Assembly (NCBI GenBank): GCA_018813815.1
Contig: JAHJAY010000027.1
Span: forward strand, 1-50,956
Direction of reading: 5' to 3'
DNA from: Patescibacteria group bacterium
GTDB lineage: Bacteria; Patescibacteriota; Microgenomatia; UBA1400; JAHJAY01
Length of the DNA stretch: 50,956 nt
The first letter of the stretch is position 1; each line of letters opens with the position of its first letter. A model generated the notes under the pieces. The model made no database searches, was not told the DNA's origin, and worked only from the letters and a program-made list of their open reading frames with translations. Positions 20,153 through 23,651 of this stretch are shown piece after piece. Made by a program: the position numbers and the translations under genes.

Positions 20153-20912
20153 GCGCTTAAAATTCATTTTAATTTCCGGTTTATTAAGTTTGGGTTTATT
20201 AACCACTCAATTTATTGATATTTCCTGGCGTTATTGGGCCATTTTAACTTTAACACCTTTAACTTTTGGTTTTTGTGTCTGGGGTTTGGTTGAGGATCTT
20301 AAGGGCGTTGAATGGTTGACTTTATTTATTTTACCGATTTACTATACGGTTTCAGTGGCTTTGTTTTACTTTTTACTGCCGGAAAAAATAATTACCCGGA
20401 TTTTTATTCTCAGCTTGTTTGGTATTGGTATGTATGCCTTATTGTTAACTCAAAACATTTTTTCCATTGCCGCGATTCGAACCATTCAGCTTTTAAGAGC
20501 GGCTCATGCGGTGGCTTTTTTATTAACTCTGGTAACCACCTTTTTTCTATTTGATACGTTGTTATCATTCCGCTTAAGCCCCTGGTTTAATGCCTTGTTG
20601 GCTTGGGTGATTGCTTTTCCCTTAGTTTTGGCTGGCTTGTGGAATATAACGCTGGCCAATAAAATTGATCAGGAAACTTGGGGTTATTCTTTAGTTTTAG
20701 CTTGGATTTTTAGCCAGCTGGCGTTTTGGATTAGTTTTTGGCCGTTATCTGTGGCCGGGGCTTCACTTTTTTTGGTAACCGCCATGTATGTCGGCCTGGG
20801 GATATTTCAGCATCATTTTAGCGGCCGTTTGTTTCAAAAAACCATTTCTGAATATGCCTGGGTTGGTGTAGTGGTTTTAATAATTACTTTTTTAACTGCC
20901 GGCTGGGGGTAA
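20145..20912 (+). CDS. Multi-pass membrane protein of unknown function
   Basis: About 9 hydrophobic helices; coupled to yebC. Confidence 0.75.
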   Translation: MNKRLKFILISGLLSLGLLTTQFIDISWRYWAILTLTPLTFGFCVWGLVEDLKGVEWLTLFILPIYYTVSVALFYFLLPEKIITRIFILSLFGIGMYALLLTQNIFSIAAIRTIQLLRAAHAVAFLLTLVTTFFLFDTLLSFRLSPWFNALLAWVIAFPLVLAGLWNITLANKIDQETWGYSLVLAWIFSQLAFWISFWPLSVAGASLFLVTAMYVGLGIFQHHFSGRLFQKTISEYAWVGVVVLIITFLTAGWG

Positions 20913-21073: not shown

Positions 21074-21536
21074 ATGGATGAATCCCAATTAGGTCAAGAT
21101 CCAGAAGACAAAATTGAAAATGGCACGCCTGCGCCGCAGGAGCCTCCAGGGCCTGATCGGGAGCAGGCTGAAGGGGGAGCAAGAACAACCGAGGCCGCCC
21201 AGAAAGGTTTTAGTTGTAGAAGACTCTGAAAATTGGCCTGATACATTGTCCCGTTTTTTTACAAGTGAAGAAATAGAATTTGTGATTGTTGATAGTGTTG
21301 AAGCAGCTGAAGTAGCCTTGGCGGAGGGAGGCTTTACGGAGATTCTTACTGATGGTTTAGAAGGAGATTGGGTAGGCGTTGTAGATATCTCTGGGGATAT
21401 GCCCGTCAGGCTTTTAACAGCTCAATATAAAGATTATAAACCCCTTGCTGATGAAATGGGTATATCGATATTAGATAAATTTACTCTTGATTGGATGGAT
21501 GCTGTGCTTGAAGAACCGCTAGCTCAAACACCTTGA
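21074..21536 (+). pseudogene. Frameshifted receiver-domain (response regulator-like) gene
   Basis: ORF 21114-21536 has KVLVVED...EILTDG...LLTA...DK; removing one G of G5 (21173-21177) joins it to the upstream MDESQ... frame. Confidence 0.6.
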
Positions 21537-21655
21537 TAGTAAAAAAACTTGATCAATAGCCGGAGAACAGGGGAGGGGCAGTCTGGAATAAGTCCCATAA
21601 TAATGGATGGCCTATAGTAAGGTAGGCGAGTTTTCATGAAAATAAACGGCGACTT

Positions 21656-21684
21656 TTCACGAAACCCACATGGTTTGATATAGT
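21656..21684 (+). promoter_or_regulatory. Predicted sigma70 promoter for the structured non-coding region
   Basis: TTCACG (21656-21661), 17 bp, TATAGT (21679-21684) with extended -10 TG; predicted TSS ~21691. Confidence 0.5.
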
Positions 21685-21892
21685 TAAGTCGGTGGGTTTT
21701 CTTCGGGTCTTGTGGAAAACCTAATTGGGCTTAAGGGGAGAGATTTGGGGCTTGAGAAGTTAACCGGCACTATGGCGGCAAAGAGAAGCACAACTTCAGT
21801 CGAATACCTTATTTGATTTTAGTTAAATTGGGTTATTATCCTCCAAAAAGCCAATATCAATGGGGAGTCAGAACAATCTGGCTGTTATGACC

Positions 21893-21920
21893 TTGTCGCA
21901 CAATGATCCTTTTGCGACAA
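21893..21920. other. dif-like tyrosine recombinase site (11-6-11)
   Basis: TTGTCGCACAA-TGATCC-TTTTGCGACAA; arms are inverted repeats with 1 mismatch; CGCAyAA-TG resembles the E. coli dif XerC arm; next to a xer gene. Confidence 0.7.
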
Positions 21921-22237
21921 GGAACTGAAAAGTCAGGAGGAGAGCCAGGTTGTTCAGTTTTTACTTCATTGGTTTAGTATTGGTCCCCAGTTTCAGTTTT
22001 TTAAAAGCTGATTATTTGGCAGTTAAATTCCCCCAATTTGTTAATGAGGAAAAAAATCTCAAAAAACTCAAAATTTAAGCGAAAAGCGCTTTAAGAGGTT
22101 CATTGTTAATATCCGGTGTTTTTTAATTTTTAACATCGGGTGCTACTTATATCTATCGGTTTATTGCCAATCGGCCTTAAAACGCCGCTGGTAAAGCCCC
22201 TTCTCATGTATGTCGTACAATTCTAGTAGAAAAGACC

Positions 22238-22271
22238 AGAAATAAGGAATTAGAAATAAGGAATTAGAAAT
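22238..22271 (+). repeat. Tandem 14-mer (AGAAATAAGGAATT)x2.4
   Basis: Direct reading; sits between structural domains 1 and 2. Confidence 0.85.
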
Positions 22272-22422
22272 TATACTGCCAGCGCTTCTTTGGTTTTATA
22301 AACTAACACTAGTTATAGTGGTTTAACCAGGGTTTTACTCTGTAAATAGTGTTAAAATTAGTTAAGTTGAAAGCTGAAGATTCAGTTGATGGCTTAAGCG
22401 ATGTCTATAAAACAGAGTTTGC

Positions 22423-22462
22423 GTCGCACAATGTTGACAGTTGGTTATTAAAGTGTTAGCAT
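22423..22462 (+). promoter_or_regulatory. Predicted xer promoter with adjacent dif half-site
   Basis: GTCGCACAATG (22423-22433), then TTGACA (22434-22439), 17 bp, TGnTAGCAT (-10 at 22457-22462). Confidence 0.6.
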
Positions 22463-22697
22463 TATGTTTATGCAATCAGTTGATACAGGCTTAATTTTAA
22501 ACCGATTTTTACCCAGGCTATCAGGCCTTTTCTCCGGACAGGGTTTACGGGCTAATAGAAATTATAGGTCTTCTCCCCCACTCTACTATGGGATGCTATT
22601 TCACCCTCTGTTAGCCCCGAGAGTAATAAATCGTGAAAAAAGACTGATATAGCAACCTTTTATTATTTTTTTCATTTTAAGCAAAGGAGGAGATCGA

Positions 22698-23651
22698 GTG
22701 CTAAAGAAAAAGACGAAGAAAAGCCCAGGGTGGCCGATATTAATTAACCAATTTTTAGAACATTTACAGATAGAGCGAGGATGTTCAGTCTTAACGGTTA
22801 GAAACTATCGTCATTACCTTGAACGTTTTTACCGTTTCATTCAGAGAGAAAAACCTCAAATGCGGGTTTCTCAATTGGATCTGGCAATTGTTCGGCGCTT
22901 CCGCCTGTTTTTAGCTGAGTATGTTGACCGCCATGGTTTACCTTTGAAAAGAGTTACACAGGCTTATCATGTAATTGCCTTGCGGTCTTTTTTACGCTGG
23001 CTGGTTAAAAATGATATTAAAACCCTGGCGCCGGAAAAAATTGATGTACCCAAAGGTGAAAGTCAGTCGTTAAAGTTTTTGAGCATTGAACAAGTGGGGC
23101 GTTTATTGTCTCAACCGACATTGAGTAGTTTAAGTGGCTTAAGAGATAAGGCGATTTTAGAAACGCTTTTTTCCACTGGTCTGCGGGTATCTGAGTTGGT
23201 GGGACTCAACCGCGATCGGCTTAATTTTAAAACCAAAGAGGTTGGAGTGATTGGCAAGGGTGGTCGAGCCCGGGTGGTATTTTTAAGCAAGTGGGCGATT
23301 AAATGGCTGCAGCGCTATTTGCAGACTCGCGAGGATAACTGGCGGCCTGTATTTATTCGCTATTCCGGAAAAGTACTGGAAGCTAGTCAGGGTGAAAAAA
23401 TGCGTTTAACTAGCCGGTCGGTTCAACGAATTGTGGAAAAATATGTTAAACAAGCTCGTTTGCCAGTTAAAATTACACCCCATGGACTTCGGCATAGTTT
23501 TGCCACTGATTTGTTGGAGTCAGGCGCTAATCTGCGTGAAATTCAGGAAATGTTAGGGCATAAAAATATTGCCACCACTCAGATTTACACCCATGTGACT
23601 AATCGCCAGTTAAGAAAAGTCCACGAGGAGTTCCACTCTGGCAATCAGTGA
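22698..23651 (+). CDS. XerC/XerD-family tyrosine recombinase
   Basis: SAM-like N-domain; LFSTGLRVSEL, IGKG, HGLRHSFATDLL, LGH, TTQIYTH; AAAGGAGG RBS with GTG start. Confidence 0.96.
   Translation: MLKKKTKKSPGWPILINQFLEHLQIERGCSVLTVRNYRHYLERFYRFIQREKPQMRVSQLDLAIVRRFRLFLAEYVDRHGLPLKRVTQAYHVIALRSFLRWLVKNDIKTLAPEKIDVPKGESQSLKFLSIEQVGRLLSQPTLSSLSGLRDKAILETLFSTGLRVSELVGLNRDRLNFKTKEVGVIGKGGRARVVFLSKWAIKWLQRYLQTREDNWRPVFIRYSGKVLEASQGEKMRLTSRSVQRIVEKYVKQARLPVKITPHGLRHSFATDLLESGANLREIQEMLGHKNIATTQIYTHVTNRQLRKVHEEFHSGNQ

Follow-up and report, generated by a model that had tools for sequence, protein, structure and literature searches.

Lone dif half-sites at the predicted xer promoter of a patescibacterial order as candidate operators for autoregulation of a tyrosine recombinase

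Why is one arm of a chromosomal recombination site repeated, without its partner arm, directly in front of the predicted promoter of the recombinase gene? This question is raised by the xer locus of a Patescibacteria group bacterium (GenBank assembly GCA_018813815.1; GTDB lineage Bacteria; Patescibacteriota; Microgenomatia; UBA1400; JAHJAY01), the genome of which comprises 844,750 bases in 49 contigs and is 94% complete. The window, i.e., the whole stretch of DNA analyzed here, consists of 50,956 nucleotides (nt) of contig JAHJAY010000027.1 (contig C7 of the genome) and contains a dif-type site, a long non-coding region, and the gene xer, which encodes an Xer-type tyrosine recombinase. An 11-mer from the left arm of the dif-type site, referred to below as the full site, recurs as a lone half-site abutting the −35 box of the predicted xer promoter. 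The best supported reading, to which a probability of roughly two in three is assigned, is that this second copy is a DNA operator by which Xer would control its own production, and the arrangement of the sequences makes repression more likely than activation.

The 11-mer GTCGCACAATG is found on the plus strand in exactly the two places (Table 1) reported in a first-pass annotation of the window, which had been made from the sequence without database searches. No other exact copy occurs in the whole genome, and a match with one mismatch is located on contig C43, apparently inside coding sequence. A restriction to two exact copies in this genome is suggestive, although the repeat does not exceed chance when the window is considered alone: two matches with at most one mismatch compare with 0.61 expected, two were reached in 11 of 100 shuffles, and another exact 11-nt repeat in two copies (family D8) lies within the same 1.4 kb. 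The significance of the repeat therefore comes from the relatives. The second copy has no right arm, its best alignment with the right-arm consensus leaving 6 of 9 positions mismatched. Directly behind it stands TTGACA-N17-TAGCAT with an extended −10 TG, as the first-pass annotation had also described, and this combination is the best sigma-70-like match between positions 20900 and 22750 (10 of 12 hexamer positions plus TG). Furthermore, a second, distal lone half-site, GTCGTACAAT, is located upstream of the second copy and had previously been missed; relatives in families f11 and f5 likewise carry two lone half-sites, 117–150 nt apart. An exact tandem duplication of AGAAATAAGGAATT (family D3) occupies positions 22238–22265, between the two lone half-sites of the window.

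The comparison was widened to the order because the family has no genome besides that of the window. Briefly, 90 xer loci were assembled, comprising 30 best orthologue matches and 60 loci chosen from the listing for family coverage, with their sequences unseen at the time of choice. Nearly all of them have the full site GTCGCACAAT-N5-TTTTGCGAC, or a close variant, upstream of xer. A half-site was counted when it differed from GTCGCACAAT by at most one base and lay on the xer strand no more than 600 nt upstream of xer, the full site being excluded. By this measure an extra left-arm half-site is present in 70 of the 90 loci, as an exact copy in 50; each of the 18 families has at least one positive locus, and 15 families are positive in every sampled locus. 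The same count on the minus strand yielded 7 of 90 loci, and 200 permuted motifs yielded a mean of 0.86 loci and a maximum of 5. Within the xer gene itself, the plus strand held the motif in 2 of 90 loci and the reverse complement (at most one mismatch) was found in 10, an excess that may reflect coding constraint. A second set consisted of 80 metagenome loci, from which 15 with less than 600 nt of upstream sequence were dropped; the half-site is present in 49 of the remaining 65, compared with one on the minus strand and a mean of 0.54 (maximum 4) for permuted motifs. The best Xer proteins in the metagenome scan were 69–70% identical to that of the window, and the closest relative, locus L126 (69% protein identity), has GTCGCACAAT-A-TTGACA, the same arrangement as the window. 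The second copy, on whose conservation the first-pass annotation had staked its proposal, is thus kept in most loci of both sets.

The lone copies are specific in strand and in arm. The first count had selected for the left-arm consensus, and for this reason the arm test was redone from the hexamer GTCG[CT]A, every occurrence on the xer strand within 600 nt upstream of xer being taken, the full site again excluded, and the next four bases being read. The left-arm type CAAT followed in 67 of 100 cases and the right-arm type AAAG in one, and the opposite strand held 21 such hexamers in all, three of them followed by CAAT. At every lone copy the right arm is absent (3–8 mismatches in 9 positions). 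The lone half-sites keep the xer orientation even in family f18, whose full site has its two arms exchanged with respect to xer. The motif is nearly invariant, with a fifth position (C or T) that alone is frequently variable. A check set out beforehand, namely whether the two 11-mers co-vary across genomes, gave for this base in the full-site left arm and the lone half-site, respectively, C/C in 57 pairs, C/T in 9, T/C in 10, and T/T in 2. These counts correspond to independent variation, so that both bases seem to be tolerated, and a link between the two copies is neither backed nor refuted by them; the argument rests on conservation instead.

For each of 84 lone half-sites, the best nearby sigma-70-like hexamer pair was determined and the offset recorded, and the offsets form sharp peaks at +11 and at −19/−20. 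Four arrangements are observed. In 25 sites, from the window genome and nine other families, the half-site is followed after one base by the TTG of the −35 box; in 21 sites, including all ten f10 loci, the CACAAT or TACAAT of the half-site itself constitutes the −10 box, 17–18 nt after TTGACA. A further 10 sites, in several families, lie 33–38 nt past the start of the −35 box, just after the −10 box and at the start site, and six (five f16 loci and one f8 locus) occupy the spacer ahead of TGnTATGAT, the ATG of xer following some 8 nt past the −10 box. Across the 84 sites, the recombinase motif thus overlaps or abuts the predicted −35, −10, or start positions of the recombinase's own gene. By contrast, the full site and the lone half-site are separated by as little as 325 nt (L014) and as much as 2361 nt (L090), and by 528 nt in the window. 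A variable distance to the full site together with promoter spacing that is exact to the base indicates that the half-site is tied to the promoter and not to the recombination site, and since every arrangement covers part of the core promoter, the half-site behaves like the operator of a repressor.

A mechanism can be proposed mainly on this ground. Xer, most simply the protein encoded 229 nt downstream, would bind the lone half-site as it binds the left arm of dif. The catalytic domain of the bound protein would then cover the position that matches the central region of dif, which at the xer promoter is the TTG of the −35 box; access of RNA polymerase would be hindered, and xer would repress itself. 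The distal half-site and the full site upstream may add cooperative binding or looping. The first-pass annotation had suggested that the recombinase binds a half-site to autoregulate its promoter: the half-site is indeed kept at, and locked to, the promoter, and the binding and the regulation are inferred from comparison.

Several points weigh against this proposal. The promoter calls are consensus matches only, the half-site of the window is centred near −42, upstream of the −35 box, which is the geometry of some activators too, the relatives are not independent of one another, and some metagenome loci may stem from the same organisms as the genomes. Such control is also not universal, because the half-site is mostly missing in family f14 (present in 2 of 16 loci) and partial in f16 (6 of 10) and f18 (6 of 8). 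Finally, a second recombinase could be the binder. This protein of 291 amino acids (aa), a divergent tyrosine recombinase encoded on contig C15 (32940–33419 region; locus L097:1459–2334, minus strand), shares 24% identity with Xer, has the His of HxxR replaced by Asn, scores 98 bits against Phage_integrase, and matches Xer-type NCBIfam models; at least two recombinase matches occur in most genomes of the order. It might act as a left-arm-specific partner or regulator, which would amount to cross-regulation, and the dif arms are systematically unequal (CAAT on the left, AAAG on the right), as in two-recombinase systems. However, single-recombinase systems have unequal arms as well, the half-sites sit at the promoter of xer, and in the window genome no half-site is seen at the paralogue's own TTGACA-N17-TACTAT promoter. 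Binding by the second recombinase is accordingly considered unlikely.

It is similarly improbable that the lone half-sites are architectural or chromosome-organizing Xer sites, serving as accessory elements of the dif synapse in the manner of DR1-DR2 of TnpI, or in an unloading of SMC near the terminus like that at XDS, with any effect on transcription being incidental. Precedents for both roles are described in the available portions of the literature, in which TnpI has extra directly repeated motifs beside its core site (PMC2847244) and the XerD-only XDS have a non-recombination role in Bacillus (cited in PMC11840125); the single orientation of the half-sites and the location of the locus at a step in guanine–cytosine (GC) skew, described below, are in keeping with such roles. 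On the other hand, it is the spacing to the promoter hexamers, and not that to dif, which is exact, TnpI has its accessory sites inside a site of 116 bp according to the same portions, and the half-sites of the order cluster at a single promoter instead of being dispersed through the terminus region.

Positive autoregulation, in which Xer at the half-site would activate the xer promoter from near −42, is quite improbable. The half-site of the window abuts the −35 box from upstream, and some activators that touch sigma region 4 sit near this position; however, the promoter, with its TTGACA, its spacer of 17 nt, and its extended −10, comes close to consensus as it is, and in other families of the order the half-site takes up positions (−10 box, spacer, or start site) at which a bound protein can do nothing but hinder polymerase.

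An RNA reading had also been put forward in the first-pass annotation, which placed the second copy in a large asymmetric internal loop and suggested, as a speculative option, that the RNA presents a site-matching sequence in an unpaired loop, loosely analogous to the bridge RNAs of IS110 recombinases. In this reading, the intergenic region would be a large structured RNA that guides the recombinase through the 11-mer. Compared with 20 shuffles, the 821-nt stretch 21880–22700 has the more stable fold (z = −3.56), the dif palindrome being part of it along with several local hairpins, and the non-coding region is long both here and in the relatives. Nevertheless, ViennaRNA folds of 21880–22700 and of 21537–22697 place the second copy mostly in paired positions (mean probability of being unpaired 0.20–0.21), so that the internal loop does not hold, and the predicted leader (22469–22715) folds no better than shuffles (z = +0.14). 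Relative to the only good promoter, the half-site of the window precedes the −35 box, which puts it outside the transcript of that promoter, and its promoter-relative position differs between families. Across the relatives the two arms of the full site change independently of each other, and there are numerous C/A combinations that would break an RNA hairpin. No Rfam match was obtained in the window at the gathering score, in the region at E-values up to 10, or in the loci of 20 relatives. An alignment-free duplex test of flank pairing around the full site in 80 loci, which is not decisive because its shuffles keep base composition, gave non-significant mean z values of −0.5 (plus strand) and −1.0 (minus strand). 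The likeness to IS110 is one of idea only, namely an upstream non-coding element with a copy of the target sequence; the enzyme here is a tyrosine recombinase and not of the IS110 type, no conserved RNA was found at xer in these searches, the motif is not fixed in position relative to a transcript, and it behaves as a DNA operator. The RNA reading is therefore highly improbable. An RNA helix enclosing dif was tried separately and rejected, as RNAalifold returned two outer helices with little covariation in family f3 and only the dif stem in f10.

A chance repeat, or a remnant left by a mobile element that had inserted at dif, is hardly credible. Although the repeat is not significant within the window and phage contigs carry the full site, the comparison with relatives (70 positive loci of 90 and 49 of 65, the controls being close to zero) refutes this reading, no lone copy has a right arm, and no genes lie between the two copies in the window.

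The identification of the full site as dif, which the first-pass annotation had regarded as dif-like, is supported by its uniqueness per genome, its adjacency to xer, and its location at a GC-skew step. The site is read as 11-6-11 and lies 778 nt upstream of xer in the window and 0.3–2.6 kb upstream in the relatives. With a matrix built from the sites of 82 relatives, it scores 35.4 and is the sole site in the genome scoring 12 or more, and exactly one zero-mismatch full site is found in each of five complete relatives. A location away from the terminus had at first been read from the GC skew, the sign of which is the same on both sides of the full site in the window and in four complete relatives; this reading was overturned by the genome-wide offset of the skew and by the step at the site. 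In the complete relative G034, all 81 10-kb bins are negative (mean −0.33), the mean-removed cumulative skew peaks at 684,000, and the best two-step fit places the steps at 268,000 and 684,000, with the site at 684,065. In G002 and G032, the skew is positive in 24 of 24 sampled 20-kb stretches each, and in the 80-kb segment around the site, analyzed in 1-kb bins, no single step fits better than one placed exactly at the site; the opposite step coincides with dnaA. In G054, which has a weak skew, the best step is 18 kb from the site, and the window gives two different positions, 23,500 for the mean-centred maximum and 42,000 for the best single step. The full site is thus located at a terminus-like skew step in three of the four complete relatives tested. 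In G034, G002, and G032 the sign of the skew never changes around the chromosome, and replication shows only as a step in its level; the genome-wide offset means that one strand is G-poor throughout, which breaks Chargaff's second rule, and a rough tally of long frames on each strand does not account for it in G034. Reliance on skew sign alone misplaces the terminus in these genomes, which matters for the annotation of origins and termini.

Further, indirect support for the dif label comes from phage contigs that carry the full site. A degenerate 24-nt pattern of the site is matched exactly by 95 candidate viral contigs in IMG/VR, mostly with other central regions. An Xer homologue was found within 1.5 kb of the site in one of 80 fetched viral loci, and no integrase-family gene was found in four of five long viral records searched whole, two of these four being rated 100% complete. 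The site-bearing contigs fit candidate integrase-less phages that borrow the Xer of their host, and they may offer a handle on phages apparently using a dif site without an integrase of their own. They also lend indirect support to a putative role of the full site in dimer resolution by recombination.

The locus combines an Xer-type recombinase with a 28-bp site present once per chromosome, a location at a skew step in three of four complete relatives, and FtsK, all of which are features of Xer/dif systems. In several described systems xer and dif likewise form one terminus module, i.e., XerS/difSL in streptococci and lactococci and XerH/difH in Helicobacter and Campylobacter (PMC5357621; PMC2958812, available portions), and the present locus resembles these modules in having a unique site adjacent to and 0.3–2.6 kb upstream of xer, at a GC-skew step. 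It differs from them in the presence of the divergent second recombinase in the same genome, in a central region of 6 bp at the window site versus 11 bp in difSL, and in the recombinase itself, which scores 141.5 bits against the XerS model NF003462 (cut-off 267) and is not a member of the XerS family; no XerH model is among its NCBIfam matches. The available parts of the XerS/difSL and XerH/difH literature mention neither a lone half-site at the xer promoter nor autoregulation.

Within the literature consulted, and as far as the available portions of it extend, TnpI of Tn5401 and Tn4430 appears to be the closest published parallel. In these portions, TnpI of Tn5401, a tyrosine recombinase, is described as modulating the expression of tnpI by binding its motifs in a site that holds the promoters (PMC7157771); TnpI/irs thus shares with the xer locus a core site with directly repeated extra motifs upstream of the recombinase gene (PMC2847244), and has promoters inside the site at which recombinase binding modulates its own expression (PMC7157771). 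The same portions present TnpI/irs as a compact 116-bp site for the resolution of transposon cointegrates, in which the accessory motifs act in synapsis. Unlike it, the xer locus is chromosomal and lacks a transposase, and its half-sites lie 325–2361 nt from the core and are locked to the promoter. Membership in a Tn3-family transposon is likewise not seen, since the neighboring genes are chromosomal and the locus is syntenic across the order. The classic example of a site-specific recombinase repressing its own promoter, through binding at its recombination site, is the Tn3/gamma-delta resolvase with res (PMC7157771, available portion); unlike Xer it is a serine recombinase, and the promoter lies within the recombination site. 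XDS of the Bacillus terminus, as described in the available portion of PMC11840125, resemble the lone half-sites in standing alone, in involving one Xer protein, and in serving a purpose beyond recombination; their role is in SMC unloading, and they occur at scattered positions in the terminus region, whereas the half-site described here is on the recombinase's own promoter.

In the available portions of the literature searched, no account was found of an Xer recombinase whose control runs through a lone dif half-site at the promoter of its own gene. The lone dif half-site on the xer promoter would accordingly be new, and the self-regulation of a recombinase via its own binding motif is of a known kind. 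Xer recombinases have been studied as enzymes whose activity is controlled by FtsK; if the proposal is correct, their amount would here be controlled via their own site, and the half-site operator would provide a testable case of one protein serving both as recombinase and as transcription factor. The analysis moreover provides a defined dif site and a predicted xer promoter for an uncultured, host-dependent bacterial order.

The surroundings of the locus are as follows (Table 1). Xer matches Pfam Phage_integrase (1.9e-41) and Phage_int_SAM_1, a SAM-like N-terminal domain, and the alignment shows the catalytic residues R, K, HxxR, H, and Y. Its best NCBIfam scores are 256 bits for XerC, 255 for XerD, and 216 for archaeal XerA, every one under its equivalog cut-off. 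Orthologues are found in 200 of the 201 genomes of the order, with 50–67% identity among the matches listed. The neighbors encode YebC, a DUF5656 protein, an MBL-fold protein, TIM, and gyrA/gyrB. FtsK (PF01580) is present with 198 bits in the window genome and is found in all five complete relatives.

Table 1. Features of the xer locus and of the non-coding region upstream of it, in window coordinates.
Feature	Position	Strand	Basis
Motif CCTATAGTAAGGTAGG upstream of dif (within 21590-21690)	21611-21626		
Motif TTTTCATGAAAA upstream of dif (within 21590-21690)	21631-21642		
Motif TTTTCACGAAAC upstream of dif	21654-21665		
Motif GGTTTGATATAGTT upstream of dif	21672-21685		
Full dif-type site, 11-6-11: TTGTCGCACAA / TGATCC / TTTTGCGACAA	21893..21920	.	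Read from imperfect palindrome 21891-21922
11-mer, first copy (part of the full-site left arm)	21895..21905	+	Exact match
Distal lone half-site GTCGTACAAT	22212..22221	+	One mismatch
Second copy of the 11-mer, lone left-arm half-site without right arm, proposed operator	22423..22433	+	Exact match
−35 hexamer TTGACA, directly after the second copy	22434..22439	+	Consensus match
Extended −10: TG (22454-22455), one base, TAGCAT (22457-22462)	22454..22462	+	Consensus match
Predicted transcription start, 6-8 nt past the −10 hexamer	22468..22470	+	Inferred
Predicted xer leader, about 229 nt	22470..22697	+	Runs to the xer start
xer, Xer-type tyrosine recombinase, 317 aa, GTG start	22698..23651	+	Pfam, NCBIfam, and orthologues

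The non-coding gap upstream of xer is 1161 nt long, being bounded by a 140-aa open reading frame that ends at 21536 and by position 22698, and the longest open reading frame inside it has 62 aa. Comparison by blastn of this intergenic region with the upstream regions of 89 relatives returned only the dif core and one block at 21588–21641. The stretch holds the only dif site, the lone Xer half-sites, a DnaA box, the paired parS-half-like TTTTCACG, and the repeated CCTATAAT and TGATATAGT. The DnaA-box-like motif, TGTGGA[T/A]AA, is found on the xer strand at 21711–21719, and 70 of 80 loci of the relatives have it at a conserved place, 156–480 nt ahead of the full site; in five of the ten loci without it, less than 300 nt of sequence was available. 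The same type of box is present at dnaA on contig C31, with two TTTTCCACA upstream and TGTGGATAA and TGTGAATAA downstream. A reading of the non-coding region as oriC, suggested by the DnaA box, was rejected, given that dnaA with its own box cluster is elsewhere and that the skew step at the site is opposite to that at dnaA. It is conceivable, albeit doubtful, that the non-coding stretch of 1–1.7 kb represents a compact control region of the terminus in ultra-small genomes, in which Xer would double as a transcription factor, promoter occupancy would be traded against engagement at dif, and DnaA would tie the locus to the replication cycle. In that case, xer would fire when dif sites are busy, for example with chromosome dimers or phage insertion.

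Upstream of dif, all families have in common 2–4 copies of CCTATAAT or CCTATAGT, two copies of TTTTCACGAAA, and TGATATAGTTTGATATAGT. The TTTTCACGAAA motif, which we take to resemble half of parS, is palindromic as TTTCACGCGTGAAA in loci L057 and L062. A pyrimidine-rich stretch is located 30–60 nt ahead of the full site, and a purine-rich motif (GGAGAAG or GGGGAGG; AGGAGGAGAG in the window, 21935–21965) lies 12–25 nt past it in most families, often with a T run behind. The purine-rich motif resembles a ribosome-binding site, and a conserved small open reading frame after dif was therefore considered; it was discarded, as the frames behind the motif are not conserved and are often absent.

Similar motifs recur in the xer leaders. 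That of the window holds CTTCTCCCCC (about 22573–22582) and CTACTATGGGAT (22588–22599), both similar to motifs in the leaders of relatives. Copies of CTATAGG are also found in xer leaders, and the leader in family f3 has two TTATCCACA boxes, 74 nt apart. The leaders of the f10 loci L046–L055, about 190 nt in length, share the blocks CTCCCCTGCCC, ACTATAGGAT, CACTATRGGG, GTGTGCGGTGGGTATGTATGTGCAAAA, GGATATATCC, and AATTTTAATTC, which may represent a leader element or further protein sites and which include TGTGCG, complementary to the core of the half-site.

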